This document shows positions 9,671 to 14,277 of a DNA stretch of 64,000 bases, in pieces (position 1 is the stretch's first letter; every line of letters starts with the position of its first letter). Both the position numbers and the translations under genes were made by a program. The notes beneath the pieces were generated by a model. It saw only the letters and a program-made list of their open reading frames with translations. It made no database searches and was not told the origin of the DNA. This DNA comes from Syntrophales bacterium (lineage in GTDB: Bacteria > Desulfobacterota > Syntrophia > Syntrophales > PHBD01), in contig OY764159.1 of NCBI GenBank assembly GCA_963668175.1, positions 2,240,001 to 2,304,000 on the forward strand, given 5' to 3'.

Positions 9671-11068
9671 TTACCCGGCGTTGTTCTCCTGCTTCTTTTC
9701 GTTACCGACCGGAGAAGCTATTTTAAACGTTTTGGCTTCCGAGCATTTGCCGCCGCCGTTCGTAACAACGATGAAAACGTCTTGCCCCGGGGTAAAACCG
9801 GACGGGACGGTGACTTTGATGGACGTGTCCTTCCAATCTTTGATGTCTGTAACTTTTGTGTTGTCGAACGTCACCGTTCCGTTTCCCTGCCGATCGCCGA
9901 ACCCTTCTCCGATCACTTCGAGTTCCCGGCCTGCGAGCGCACCGTCGCTCGGATTGAAGCCCGTGATCTTAGGAGTCGCAGCGCCTCCGGTCTTGAGGCC
10001 GTCCGTCCGGGCAGGCGGAGAGGCTATTTTGACCGTTTTGGCTTCCGAGCATTTGCCGCCGCCGTTCGTAACAACGATGGAAACGTCTTGCCCCGGGGTA
10101 AAACCGGACGGGACGGTGACTTTGATGGACGTGTCCTTCCAATCTTTGATGTCTGTAACTTTTGTGTTGTCGAACGTCACCGTTCCGCTTCCCTGCTGAT
10201 CGCCGAACCCTTCTCCGATCACTTCGAGTTCCCGGCCTGCGGGCGCACCGTCGCTCGGATTGAAGCCCGTGATCTTAGGAGTCGCAGCGCCTCCGGTCTT
10301 GGGGAGGCTCGGCCCGGAAGTCGATGGGGCTGCTGCCTGCGCTGTTGTCCTGCTGCCGAAGTAGAAGCCCGTGATGGCCGTCAAGGTGCCGGCGAGCAGT
10401 GTAAGGAGTTGGTCTGCAATTTTGGGAATATCCGAGGGCGTGAATACGACAAGATGGAAGATTGCCACGGCAAGGACGAGAATGAGCGTTACCGCTATGG
10501 TGCCTCGTGTAAGGCCGGTGAGGCCGGACGGCCCCTTGTCCATGGTTTCGAGAAGCGTGTTGACCTCGGCGATTTTTGCGTTCCCCGATAGCAGCTTGAG
10601 AACTTCCCGGCGCTCTCTGTAGCTCAGGTAAATGTCGTAAATATTGCTTCCCGCGGGCGGTATGGCGATGATCAGGATGTACAGGATGAGAATCCAGTAG
10701 CTGTTGTAGGATCGTTCCTGGGATTCGACATAATTGAGCTGTCCGCTGGCGACCGGCCGGTCGTCCTTGCCGATGACCTCGATATCGACCCTCCCCACGA
10801 TGTTCAGCTTCGGAAGCGGAAGGGATATTCCGCCGTCCGCCCCCGGCGCCTGCACGGCGACGACATGCCCGCCGATGTTGACCTTGTTTATGTCTTTCCA
10901 GCCGGGAGTATTCTTGTCCCCTGTGAGTATGATAGTCGGCGCGGTTCCCTTGAGAATGCGGTCGGGTTTGGGGGATACCGGCGGTAATTCTCCGGCGGCG
11001 GCGAAGGCAGCCGCTGCCGCGACGAACATCCCGATTACGGCAAAAAAGCTGATATGACGTGCGCGCAT
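9671..11068 (-). CDS. Membrane protein with IPT/TIG domains and three TM helices ending in GFYFGS
   Basis: Signal peptide; N-terminal IPT-like domain; hydrophobic helices; two near-identical C-terminal IPT domains (PKITGFNP..GEGFG..WKDTSIKVTVP). Confidence 0.8.
   Translation of the reverse strand: MRARHISFFAVIGMFVAAAAAFAAAGELPPVSPKPDRILKGTAPTIILTGDKNTPGWKDINKVNIGGHVVAVQAPGADGGISLPLPKLNIVGRVDIEVIGKDDRPVASGQLNYVESQERSYNSYWILILYILIIAIPPAGSNIYDIYLSYRERREVLKLLSGNAKIAEVNTLLETMDKGPSGLTGLTRGTIAVTLILVLAVAIFHLVVFTPSDIPKIADQLLTLLAGTLTAITGFYFGSRTTAQAAAPSTSGPSLPKTGGAATPKITGFNPSDGAPAGRELEVIGEGFGDQQGSGTVTFDNTKVTDIKDWKDTSIKVTVPSGFTPGQDVSIVVTNGGGKCSEAKTVKIASPPARTDGLKTGGAATPKITGFNPSDGALAGRELEVIGEGFGDRQGNGTVTFDNTKVTDIKDWKDTSIKVTVPSGFTPGQDVFIVVTNGGGKCSEAKTFKIASPVGNEKKQENNAG
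9711..10301. repeat. Intragenic tandem duplication, period 306 bp (two IPT domains)
   Basis: ~9711-9995 and ~10017-10301 are nearly identical at DNA level. Confidence 0.95.
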
Positions 11069-11090
11069 AATGCCTCCTTGCTTTCATGCA

Positions 11091-12611
11091 TTAAGGGTGG
11101 TCCTTGAACGCGTTTCTGATTTGAAGCACGGCGGCGTCCTTTCGCCATTTCAACTGATCGTCATAGGCACCCCGGTTATAGAGACTGTTGCTTCCGTTCT
11201 CCTTGTCCACGGCAATTTCGTTATGGTGGGGCAGCGCTCCGCGGAAGGCGAAGTTCTTGTCCTTTTTGATAATATCGGCGGGAATATAGCACGGGGCTTC
11301 CAGCACTCCCCTGGAGTCGCCCGTCTGGCCGAAGCGTCCCGATATGATCCTTCCCTTCCAGAAGGCGACGGCTTTTCCCATCTGCGCTGGCTCGATCACA
11401 TCGGGATTCGTGCTGAGAGGTTTGCTGCCGAGCCGGTACTGGGGATCGGTACTGTAATCGATGCTGAAGGCGGGCGTCTTCTTCACGGGGTCATAAGGCG
11501 TGGGCTTGCCTGCCAGGCCGTTTGCAATGGCCATATGGGCGTAATTCGTATGCGCATAGAAGTCGCCGATGCCGTGGGCCGCCTTCGCAAAACTGTCGAT
11601 TCCGTCCGGGTCCGTCAGCGGTTGATTTTTGAAGGTGTCGAGGCGGGTCCGGACGAGCTCCCAGCTTTCATCGATATAGCCGTTGTCGAAGTGATCGTAG
11701 GGATTGTATTTGAAAAGATTCAAGTCGGGCGCGTCAATGCATTGGCCGAACAGGATCGTAAAGTTTCGGTTTGCCTGCTGCAGCCACCAGTCTGGAGCCG
11801 TGCCGTCCCTCCCCAGGGCTTCGTTCAGGATGGTCCTGTGGACTTCTCCGTAAAAAGTGGGATGCAGGCCGGACCACCGTTGCTTGAGGGTGCGTCGCCG
11901 CTTGCGCGCGGTATGGAGGGGATTGTTGACTTCCCAGAGATGATCGCCATTGAAGACGAACTCGGGAACATATTCCAGGCCGACGGTGTCTTTCGCGTTT
12001 CTCAGAGCATCCCCGTCGGGCTTCATCCCCGACTGCGGCGCATCGGCCGAAGGTTCGAGAATGGACCAGCGCCCCGCCTCGTCCTTGTACATGACCCAGC
12101 AATGATCGAAATGCCCGGTTCGATTCCCGGTATCGAAACGCCTCACGTATCCGAGCGCCACCCTGACATTGTAAGGGCTGATGCCGGCGGCGGTGAGAAG
12201 CGACGCCAGCAGCAGGGCGCGATCCTCGCAGTCGCCTTCTTTCACGAAAAGGGTTTCGTCCGGGAACTGCCAGTAATCGACTTTACGGTTGGCGTACCGG
12301 ATCTCGTGCTGGACGTACGAGGTAAGAAGGCTGCTCATGTGATCGAACGATCCGGGGCCCCTGCTGTGCAGGAAGTCCCAGTCCGCACCGCGCTGCTGCC
12401 TTACAAACGATTTGAAGTCTTCGGACAGTGTCTCCCGCATGACGGCGTTGTGATCCGAGCCGATAAATTCCCGGACGTCGATTTCGTATCTGCGACTGTT
12501 CCCGTACCCTGCAACGGGCCGCGACGAAGGCACCACGCATTCATGGAGTATGCGGTCTCCGTCCCAGTTCCATCGGATTGTAGAGGAGATTTTAGGGCGT
12601 GCAAACGACAT
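11091..12611 (-). CDS. Transglutaminase-like domain fused to a HET-C / phospholipase C-P1-like Zn-binding domain
   Basis: WQFPDETL..GDCED, DHCW and ILEPS (TGase triad-like); C-terminal HRTIL, HFDN and HGIGDFYAHTNY. Confidence 0.7.
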   Translation of the reverse strand: MSFARPKISSTIRWNWDGDRILHECVVPSSRPVAGYGNSRRYEIDVREFIGSDHNAVMRETLSEDFKSFVRQQRGADWDFLHSRGPGSFDHMSSLLTSYVQHEIRYANRKVDYWQFPDETLFVKEGDCEDRALLLASLLTAAGISPYNVRVALGYVRRFDTGNRTGHFDHCWVMYKDEAGRWSILEPSADAPQSGMKPDGDALRNAKDTVGLEYVPEFVFNGDHLWEVNNPLHTARKRRRTLKQRWSGLHPTFYGEVHRTILNEALGRDGTAPDWWLQQANRNFTILFGQCIDAPDLNLFKYNPYDHFDNGYIDESWELVRTRLDTFKNQPLTDPDGIDSFAKAAHGIGDFYAHTNYAHMAIANGLAGKPTPYDPVKKTPAFSIDYSTDPQYRLGSKPLSTNPDVIEPAQMGKAVAFWKGRIISGRFGQTGDSRGVLEAPCYIPADIIKKDKNFAFRGALPHHNEIAVDKENGSNSLYNRGAYDDQLKWRKDAAVLQIRNAFKDHP

Positions 12612-13328: not shown

Positions 13329-13476
13329 GTGACATTCCTCCTTTCTGCCGATAAAAATAGGCGGCTGTTCCCCGCTTAAGGCGGGCTTCCGGGGGTTAGC
13401 GGCCGTTCATGTGAGGGGTGCGCATGGATTGGATCCGACATGATGGACCCTCTGAAAATAAGCTCCGCCTCCGCGC

Positions 13477-14277
13477 CTAGACGGTCACCCCGTAGGCCTC
13501 TGTGAATGCGGCTTTAGCATAGGGGTAGCTCGCGTAAGCGAAGCCCTTGTCGCCCCACTCTTCCGTCCCCCAGCTGTTGCGGACGATGAATCTGTCGGGC
13601 GTGTACCCGACGAAAGCCACGGCGTGGCCGCTATTGTTCGCCGGATCAGGCCTGTATGCATCGAGTTTGCCGCCCGTCTCCTTGGCCTTCATCCATGTCT
13701 CGTCGACGTTCAACCTTGTGAGAATGGGTCCGTGGTTCGCCAGCCATTCCTTCCAGGCATTCAAATCGATGCCCAGGTTGAAGTAATTGGCGATTTTAAG
13801 TTGCGACGCCGTGGCGTAAAAGGTCTGCGTATCCCCCTTGAACAGCTGGTTGGTCCAGAAAGGAAGGACGGAATCCCTGACGATGCCGTATTTTCTGGCG
13901 ATATCCAGCGCCGCCTTGAGGCTCGTGCCCTGCTCCTCGATAAAGGTCGTGGGCTCGTCTATAAATTCGTCGGTCTCCTTGGCGCTCATCCAGATGAAGC
14001 GGACGGAAAGCAGCTCGTCCTTCTTCAGGCGGCCCGCCTTCACGAAATGCCAGCGGATGACCGAGTCCGTGGAGGCCCATCCGACGCACGATCCCGTATC
14101 TTGCTGATCCGCGACCTTCCACCAGGATTCACGCAGGTCCTTTCTGGCGGGTACGGGCGGCTGTGCCGCGAGCAGCCCCGCACTCTTGGCGTGCGAAATC
14201 TGCCAATCCTTTTCGATGCCGCGCGACGGAACGCAATTTAAGATCCTTTGACTGGCCGAACTTTTCTTTGCTTTCAT
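13477..14277 (-). CDS. Papain-family (C1) cysteine peptidase
   Basis: DQQDTGSCVGW (Q, catalytic C), GHAVAFVGY (H), VRNSWG (N); AAGGAGG RBS before MKAKK. Confidence 0.9.
   Translation of the reverse strand: MKAKKSSASQRILNCVPSRGIEKDWQISHAKSAGLLAAQPPVPARKDLRESWWKVADQQDTGSCVGWASTDSVIRWHFVKAGRLKKDELLSVRFIWMSAKETDEFIDEPTTFIEEQGTSLKAALDIARKYGIVRDSVLPFWTNQLFKGDTQTFYATASQLKIANYFNLGIDLNAWKEWLANHGPILTRLNVDETWMKAKETGGKLDAYRPDPANNSGHAVAFVGYTPDRFIVRNSWGTEEWGDKGFAYASYPYAKAAFTEAYGVTV

Follow-up and report, generated by a model that had tools for sequence, protein, structure and literature searches.

The holin/endolysin route of protein release (type 10 secretion) is exemplified by the Serratia ChiWXYZ genes, by the release of the Yersinia entomophaga Tc toxin and by clostridial TcdE (PMC9527704, PMC5778951, PMC10847048, PMC10516005). 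A cluster of four genes, partly resembling these cases, is present in a 64,000-nucleotide (nt) stretch of contig OY764159.1 from a Syntrophales bacterium, here referred to as the window, which encodes a C1 peptidase, a GH19-type muramidase, a protein with a transglutaminase-fold and a HET-C-like domain, and a membrane protein containing a module of three transmembrane helices (3-TM) and TIG domains. Compared with the type 10 cases, the cluster likewise features a signal-less wall hydrolase, a nearby membrane module made of small helices and neighboring enzymes devoid of signals, and is likewise free of phage structural genes, within the 69 open reading frames (ORFs) scanned. It differs in the lack of a recognized holin family or spanin, in a membrane protein of 465 amino acids (aa) carrying immunoglobulin (Ig)-like domains, in a linkage which is not conserved (0/67 loci of the transglutaminase family), and in being known from genes alone.

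The reading favored here, with a confidence which stops somewhat short of even, sees in the region a mosaic of horizontally acquired genes for hydrolases that stay in the cytoplasm, rather than a conserved four-gene system. The core of the mosaic would be a pair formed by the C1 peptidase and the GH19 muramidase, which appears to recur elsewhere; the transglutaminase-fold/HET-C-like gene would be an independent member of a stand-alone family, sitting here by chance, and the last gene would belong to a large 3-TM/Ig-like family. The GH19 enzyme has no export signal and would therefore reach the cell wall only after a breach of the inner membrane; envelope proteins, or proteins already released, would be the substrates on which the C1 protease acts alongside GH19. 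The 3-TM protein would be the only candidate in cis for such a breach, its tie to GH19 coming from this one locus. The features of the region, all on the minus strand, are listed below.

14278-14923 (-): AT-rich spacer upstream of the C1 gene, 646 nt, with promoter-like hexamers
13477-14277 (-): C1 peptidase gene, 266 aa, with AAGGAGG upstream of the ATG at 14277
13465-13484 (-): terminator-like hairpin followed by a T-run, overlapping the C1 stop codon, from a consensus scan
12684-13328 (-): GH19-type muramidase/endolysin-like gene, 214 aa
11091-12611 (-): two-domain hydrolase gene (transglutaminase-fold and HET-C-like), 506 aa
12051-12326 (-): transglutaminase-core/LapG-like cysteine protease fold, residues 96-187, with C128, H170 and E186
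11094-11879 (-): HET-C-like/VWA7_N-like domain of metal-hydrolase type, residues 245-506
9671-11068 (-): membrane protein gene (3-TM module and TIG domains), 465 aa
10319-10726 (-): 3-TM module, residues 115-250
10352-10369 (-): GFYFGS at the end of the third transmembrane helix (TM3), residues 234-239
9710-10315 (-): tandem duplication encoding two TIG domains, with a 300-nt unit, copies 95% identical and a spacing of 306 nt

The limits of the cluster (9671-14277) coincide exactly with the stop codon of the fourth gene and with the ATG that opens the C1 gene. The genes, originally predicted to be co-directional, indeed lie on one strand, separated in gene order by 148, 72 and 22 nt, and Shine-Dalgarno-like AGGAGG/AAGGA sequences are found just 5' of each of the four starts. 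The domain assignments of the original prediction were also recovered, through matches to PF00112 for the C1 peptidase, to phrog_181 and PDB endolysins for the GH19-type enzyme, to PF01841 for the transglutaminase and to PF01833 for the TIG domains. A plus-strand ORF at 11070-13379 (769 aa) was rejected as a shadow ORF, because Pfam matches and homologues belong to the minus-strand frames.

Linkage and base composition of the four genes

Recurrence of the gene set was evaluated by a genome scan seeded with a 20-member alignment of the transglutaminase/HET-C-like family, which produced 67 loci, each including up to 10 kb on either side; the 9349 ORFs contained in these loci were then searched with the four window proteins. 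The transglutaminase-family gene was present in 67/67 loci, GH19 and the membrane protein in 0/67 each, and C1 in 1/67. In this sole case (L060, E 3e-10) the C1 gene lies about 4.6 kb downstream of the transglutaminase-family gene, is preceded by a multicopper-oxidase-like gene and an unknown one, and is followed by a trypsin-like gene. With GH19 and the membrane module never detected, and C1 only once, in a distant form, the transglutaminase-family gene therefore needs none of the other three. An all-against-all comparison of the 3370 neighboring ORFs within 6 kb revealed no neighbor family in more than 6 loci, the transglutaminase-family gene and its shadow frames excepted. A profile of the 3-TM module, run over 72 loci plus the window, found the window's own protein only, and a tblastn search of plasmids with the transglutaminase-family protein gave no match.

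These searches show that the transglutaminase/HET-C-like family is stand-alone and well conserved, without conserved linkage. The claim that the four genes constitute one integrated module, on which the original prediction was centered, did not survive this co-occurrence check, which covered the loci of the transglutaminase family. As far as tested, the four-gene combination appears to be specific to this locus, a mosaic on present evidence, with all four proteins assignable to known superfamilies.

A different picture was obtained for C1 and GH19. Co-location was assessed on contigs of at least 3 kb, using the best 120 of 3828 C1 matches and the best 120 of 1398 GH19 matches. The best non-self C1 (87% identity) and the best non-self GH19 (95%) are both recorded on JGI contigs of one size, 4,536 bp, and the members of a further C1/GH19 pair (66% and 73% identity) have a contig size of 6,876 bp in common. 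Two exact matches in contig size were thus observed, against 0.127 expected (Poisson P ~0.007); the same test gave 1 match, against 0.29 expected, for C1 and the transglutaminase family, and 0 for GH19 and the transglutaminase family. We infer that the C1 and GH19 genes may form a recurrent pair. Best non-self identities for the other two components are 49% (transglutaminase family) and 61% (3-TM module). Close C1 and GH19 relatives would exist without a close full-length transglutaminase-family copy, since no relative of the latter exceeds 49% identity among proteins of 278-886 aa. A protease encoded beside a wall hydrolase is a recurring theme, in non-orthologous forms (C1/Amidase_2 in Microvirga; GH19-PG_binding_1-trypsin in Paracoccus).

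Base composition is consistent with acquisition. The window has a GC content of about 60%, interrupted by several low-GC patches of foreign composition, located at 1-4000 (40% GC), 14-16 kb (51%), 30-32 kb (48%) and 42-44 kb (49%). GC content at third codon positions (GC3) is 0.69-0.76 in the four genes, against 0.82-0.92 for most other scored window genes, a range which includes the flanking PEP-CTERM and MFS genes; the adjoining TPR gene has a value of 0.60. The atypical GC3 of the cluster fits acquired DNA, possibly with all four genes acquired together.

Several observations weigh against the mosaic reading. The C1-GH19 pairing is deduced indirectly, from equal contig sizes within the best 120 of 3828 and of 1398 matches, and no exact size match occurs among the genome-scale contigs of both best-120 lists. 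The closest plasmid relatives of C1 (Microvirga, Burkholderia) and of GH19 (Leptolyngbya) are unpaired with each other, and the terminator-like hairpin of the window falls between C1 and GH19. A truncated transglutaminase-family copy could be present on the 4,536-bp contig, given the 278-886 aa range of the search. Finally, one operon acquired as a whole would equally agree with the 22-148 nt spacing, the single strand and the like GC3 of the genes.

The three signal-less enzymes

The N-termini of the three enzymes, judged by eye, are not signal-like, which agrees with the absence of recognizable signal peptides noticed originally. The catalytic motifs had also been described as intact, and this was supported for each of them, by the alignment of C1 blocks with a known structure, by the presence of the GH19 Glu block and by the invariance of C128 and H170 in the transglutaminase core, as detailed below.

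The C1 peptidase matches PF00112 (6.3e-13, 49.7 bits, cut-off 20.7) and phrog_16701 'peptidase' (7.2e-9). Its His and Asn blocks align with those of the bacterial cysteine protease of Xylella, PDB 3ois (1.9e-6), and its Cys block, read from the translation, is GSCVGW; the protein thus shares with bacterial C1 peptidases both fold and catalytic blocks. Like that of GH19, the family is abundant, with little variation in length and an unusual degree of similarity among its members; 3828 relatives were collected, and many of them show about 65% identity and have a length of about 263 aa. Comparison with phages returned only 2 distant jumbo-phage matches, and C1 is for this reason not a usual phage lysis gene.

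The two closest plasmid relatives of C1 have distinct neighbors. In the Microvirga plasmid NZ_CP069358.1 (locus 7185-10161, L068) a C1 domain, 57.5% identical to that of the window, is preceded by an N-terminal extension of about 260 aa, with no Pfam match at E<=0.001; the gene for a 456-aa Amidase_2 protein comes next, 19 nt further on, and those for trypsin-like and S8 proteases are found just beyond. In the Burkholderia plasmid AP022308.1 (locus 7983-12800, L069) the C1 gene (53.5% identical) is followed by a chagasin-family inhibitor (Inhibitor_I42) with a lipoprotein-like signal, as judged by eye, and then by a 1112-aa SAM-adenylate/guanylate cyclase-AAA_16 protein, and a LuxR/cNMP-binding regulator lies upstream. 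Unlike this C1/chagasin gene pair, the window C1 has no adjoining chagasin gene, its neighbor being GH19.

The GH19 protein matches phrog_181 'endolysin' (1.3e-59) and the PDB endolysins 9eoi (7.6e-30), 9ms6 (9.1e-26) and 4ok7 (3.9e-21), and is placed on the basis of these matches in the GH19-type endolysin group; PF00182 stays below cut-off (E 0.008, 16.4 bits vs 25.5). 'Glycoside hydrolase family 19' is the label which close relatives have in their source records. The conserved Glu-containing N-terminal block was read by eye as present. Taken together, sequence comparisons indicate that the protein is a peptidoglycan hydrolase of endolysin type, predicted to lack an export signal of its own. 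It is similar to the phage endolysins over its full length (about 210 aa), and differs from them in being chromosomal, with no phage genes in the ORFs scanned, and in its closest relatives (about 70% identity), which are abundant stand-alone 213-aa proteins of environmental bacteria. 1398 relatives were collected, many of them about 70% identical and 213 aa long.

Other arrangements of GH19 were observed. The closest plasmid relative, from Leptolyngbya (63.5% identity), is fused to PG_binding_1. In the Paracoccus plasmid NZ_CP067227.1 (locus 6923-8809, L071) GH19, PG_binding_1 and trypsin domains are combined in one 628-aa protein, which is followed by a second trypsin-like protease and adjoins a contractile-tail-like cluster at its baseplate J, gp25 and tail genes. 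In Deinococcus, a GH19 relative lies inside a prophage-like gene row.

The 506-aa hydrolase consists of an N-terminal region, a transglutaminase-fold Cys-His-Glu/Asp core and a C-terminal, His-rich, all-alpha domain. A search restricted to proteins of 278-886 aa identified 634 relatives of about 500 aa, from many phyla, with 41-49% identity over the full length, which define a stand-alone family, widespread and well conserved, that has no assigned role. The AlphaFold2 (AF2) model of the protein has a predicted local distance difference test (pLDDT) value of 76.4. The core matches PF01841 (6.4e-9, 36.5 bits vs a cut-off of 23); among 20 aligned family members C128 and H170 are invariant and E186 is found in at least 90%. 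Foldseek aligned the model to LapG (4u65/4fgo) with E values of 1e-4 to 3e-4, and in a comparison of the family profile with PDB sequences only LapG-type chains were matched (4u65, 5.1e-5), with nothing matching the C-terminal half. A LapG equivalog identity was considered and rejected (17.8 vs 320 bits for the NCBIfam LapG model). LapG is a periplasmic protease, and the transglutaminase fold does not by itself imply cross-linking, because this protease has the same fold. The 506-aa hydrolase shares with LapG the fold and the Cys-His core; unlike the periplasmic LapG, it has no signal and contains additional N- and C-terminal domains.

In the C-terminal half H258, D296, H307-x-D309, H346-x3-D350-x3-H354, H462-H463 and D469 are invariant, with N402 and S424-G425 also conserved, in series order. 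The Tox-HET-C signature comprises H, [DE], HxD, HxxxDxxxH, Nxx[DE] and [ST]G within an all-alpha domain (Zhang et al. 2012, PMC3482391). The motif order of the window domain fits this signature, except that of Nxx[DE] only the N is kept, the acid being not conserved. The AF2 model of the domain is mostly helical, with a pLDDT of 90.1, and the nearest Atlas clusters are VWA7_N/'HET-C-related', at 0.92-0.93. No match was found to Het-C (PF07217), nor, for residues 238-506, to any Pfam family even at E<=10; Foldseek of the C-terminal model gave nothing significant (best E 0.5). Zinc phospholipase C and S1/P1 nucleases, which have been proposed as kin of Tox-HET-C (Zhang et al. 2012, PMC3482391), recur among its weak top matches (E 0.6-3, TM-score 0.24-0.31). 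The HET-C-like character assigned to this half in the original prediction is thus suggested by motif order and Atlas clusters, and finds no counterpart in Pfam or among significant Foldseek matches; 'HET-C-like' seems a reasonable description, with family membership unproven. With Tox-HET-C and VWA7_N the domain appears to share the all-alpha build and the order of His/Asp motifs; it differs from Tox-HET-C in being fused to a transglutaminase-fold domain and in having neither trafficking domain nor immunity gene.

A feature of the family N-terminus was also observed. Proteins almost always begin with Met-Cys, as do 18/20 of the aligned sequences; among the 67 loci, the N-terminus was placeable in 42, and 41 of these have Met-Cys. 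The window copy begins with Met-Ser. The family, although signal-less, has a conserved Cys at the second position.

The membrane protein and its 3-TM family

The 465-aa membrane protein is composed, in this order, of an N-terminus judged by eye to be signal-like, a domain of about 90 aa without Pfam match, the 3-TM module and two TIG domains, with GFYFGS (residues 234-239) closing the last helix before the TIG domains, as originally noticed. TIG domains were detected by PF01833 (8.1e-20, 71.1 bits vs 20.9) in two stretches, the best at residues 264-345; the second copy was located from the offset of the repeat. Since the two copies are 95% identical, the duplication looks recent. Basic residues follow TM1, precede TM2 and follow TM3, a positive-inside pattern which suggests an N-out, C-in topology, in which the TIG domains would be cytoplasmic, an unusual location.

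A search with the module against 1.84 billion representatives detected 299 clusters at E<=1e-3, 100 of which at E<=1e-10, and the best 150 relatives of these clusters were surveyed. Near-invariant positions among them are G182, G185 and R188, of a G-x2-G-x2-R motif preceding TM2, and the F235-Y236-F237-G238 stretch with which TM3 ends. The proteins range from 93 to 465 aa; 62 contain TIG, 4 fn3, 3 He_PIG and 1 Big_2 domains. No Pfam family covers the module above cut-off, either in the window protein or in the 150 relatives. The complete module is found in 102 relatives: 25/102 have almost nothing N-terminal of it, 54/102 have an N-terminal extension of at least 60 aa, beginning in 41 of the 54 with a hydrophobic segment, 62/102 have at least 80 aa C-terminal of the module and 21/102 a short C-terminal tail, Lys/Glu-rich in many of the 21. 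In length and arrangement, minimal members (115-152 aa), which have three hydrophobic helices and a Lys/Glu-rich tail, resemble class-I holins. Judged from these comparisons, the 3-TM module is a sizeable uncharacterised family, often fused to Ig-like domains, with small phage relatives.

The tail of the membrane protein was originally described as holin-like. In favor of this view are the class-I-like minimal members and the matches to phage families: the window protein matches phrog_9990 (6.3e-4) and phrog_38564 (4.2e-3), and 61, 23 and 8 of the 150 relatives match phrog_9990, phrog_38564 and phrog_9646, respectively, all small phage proteins of unknown function. Kinship to a recognized holin family is weak, the match to GTA_holin_3TM (PF11351) being below cut-off (E 0.038, 14.9 bits vs 24.8); PF11351 is matched at E<=0.01 by 1/150 relatives, and an annotated holin PHROG also by 1/150. 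ORF137 of phage ICP1, which from its numbering we take to be the holin TeaA, was aligned by hhalign to a 25-member module alignment with 27.9% probability, over 49 columns of the TM2-TM3 hairpin; ORF137 itself is not matched by PF11351 at E<=0.1. The weak PF11351 and ORF137 alignments fall on the same TM2-TM3 hairpin, ending in FYFG or FFFG. The window module is similar to PF11351 and to TeaA (PMC7182436) in having three helices and an aromatic F-[YF]-F-G-S hairpin end, and different in its long, cytoplasmic-looking TM1-TM2 loop and large flanking domains.

Neither the whole membrane protein nor P0162 found a match in plasmids by tblastn, and the same was true in phages of P0121 and P0209, all of the 3-TM family; the phage negatives are weak evidence, because the BLAST low-complexity filter may hide membrane helices. 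The Atlas search with the module was uninformative (best 0.78), and in the literature library searched no paper was found on a GFYFG/FYFGS/GFFFG helix-end motif in this sense.

Alternative readings and surroundings of the cluster

The closeness of the four genes could be taken as the sign of an integrated holin/endolysin (type 10) module, in which the 3-TM protein and GH19 would breach membrane and wall, respectively, and thereby let out the C1 and transglutaminase/HET-C-like enzymes as cargo. The co-directional arrangement with gaps of 22-148 nt and like GC3, the endolysin-like, signal-less GH19, the class-I-holin aspect of the 115-152 aa 3-TM members, the phage matches (61/150 for phrog_9990, 23/150 for phrog_38564) and the coincidence of the PF11351 and ORF137 alignments on one FYFG/FFFG hairpin all point in this direction. 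The supposed cargo is nevertheless unlinked, GH19 and the membrane module being found at 0/67 loci; the matched PHROGs have no known function and resemblance to holin families is marginal (14.9 vs 24.8 bits for PF11351, 1/150 relatives at E<=0.01, 1/150 for a holin PHROG, 27.9% by hhalign). Known holins differ from a 465-aa protein whose 3-TM module has Ig-like domains on either side, the transglutaminase-family gene stands between GH19 and the membrane gene, and no convincing spanin- or immunity-like candidate was seen when the flanking spacers were inspected by eye for ORFs of 25 aa or more. Such a module is therefore regarded as improbable. A still more doubtful elaboration would see in the G-x2-G-x2-R...GFYFG module an undescribed holin-like family, with small phage members and with Ig-like domains gained in cellular members, which here, together with GH19, would provide phage-independent release of the signal-less C1 and transglutaminase/HET-C hydrolases, the cytoplasmic TIG domains recruiting or gating the cargo. 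Within the favored mosaic reading, too, release of holin/endolysin type may occur, and the proximity of a 3-TM membrane protein to an endolysin-type GH19 enzyme devoid of signal makes it reasonable to consider; a true release system would extend this secretion route to environmental bacteria and add a new membrane component. On the literature side, papers on mycobacteriophage endolysins and a review were all that was found for holins and GH19 together with cysteine proteases and type 10 secretion. That the 3-TM protein permeabilises membranes would be, for the mosaic reading as well, a matter of inference.

At the opposite extreme, the four genes could be unrelated, accumulated in a variable region, with an incidental co-direction and no common mechanism. 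This has a real, if minor, chance of being correct: the window is full of patches of foreign composition, each family has other neighbors elsewhere, best non-self identities vary widely (49-95%) and a terminator-like hairpin follows C1. It does not account for the two C1/GH19 contig matches, against 0.127 expected, nor for the like GC3 of all four genes, the very short gaps with ribosome-binding sites and the lack of a promoter-sized spacer among the last three genes. The protease, the muramidase and the HET-C-type hydrolase could alternatively form an arsenal of effectors directed against bacteria or eukaryotes, which a secretion or injection apparatus, encoded at another place in the genome, would deliver. 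HET-C-type domains are described as toxin modules of polymorphic toxin systems linked to type 2 (T2SS) and type 6 (T6SS) secretion systems and to PVC (PMC3482391); the Burkholderia C1 relative, followed by its chagasin-family inhibitor with lipoprotein-like signal, has the layout of an effector-immunity pair, and the Paracoccus GH19-trypsin fusion lies beside baseplate and tail genes. Against it, none of the four genes has, on inspection by eye, a small immunity-like gene as its neighbor, the four proteins have no recognized trafficking domain and no secretion or injection genes occur among the 69 window ORFs scanned; the transglutaminase family has no conserved neighbor, and so no immunity gene, in 67 loci, and the identity of about 65-70% which C1 and GH19 keep in many sources does not point to fast-evolving toxins. 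An effector arsenal is, of these explanations, the one to which we give the least credit, and a mosaic built around a C1-GH19 pair is preferred.

The spacer at 14278-14923 is likely to be the regulatory region of the cluster; a consensus scan placed sigma-70-like sites in it, at 14636-14607 and 14499-14472 of the minus strand. The hairpin at 13465-13484 could separate C1 transcription from that of the three downstream genes; it is weak evidence, because 5 terminator-like sites were found in the region, against 9.2 expected. No Rfam family was found at E<=0.1 across 9300-15100, no tRNA in the window, and no direct or inverted repeats, flanking the cluster, that would mark the ends of an island. 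The Pfam scan, which covered 69 of the 161 window ORFs of at least 110 aa, detected no phage structural or replication, secretion or injection families, in keeping with the original remark that phage structural and replication genes are not found nearby. Spanin genes are usual, not universal, in Gram-negative lysis cassettes. None of the four proteins matched a spanin PHROG, and small spanin-like or immunity-like ORFs were sought in the flanking spacers by eye, without a family scan. PADLOC returned 0 families for the four proteins at E<=0.01, and no trafficking domain was found in them by Pfam or NCBIfam.

Other genes of the window deserve mention. The 40% GC patch contains, at 466-3603 (-), a 1046-aa protein with calcineurin-like phosphoesterase and 'Novel STAND NTPase 4' domains, which matches the candidate defence system PDC-S60 (PADLOC, 1.1e-70). 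In another low-GC patch, at 29963-31637 (-), a C-5 cytosine DNA methylase gene overlaps that of a Vsr mismatch endonuclease, with GC3 values of 0.45-0.47; the two seem to be a methylase/repair pair of acquired origin. Three plus-strand genes, at 4137-5207, 7399-9441 and 56113-56847, encode an omptin-family outer-membrane protease (2.8e-60) and two proteins with PEP-CTERM tags, which make an exosortase system probable in the host. Finally, a PAC_bac proteasome-assembly-chaperone-like protein (6.3e-35) is encoded at 18590-18985 (-), between the genes for a UbiX-like flavoprotein and a UbiD-family decarboxylase.

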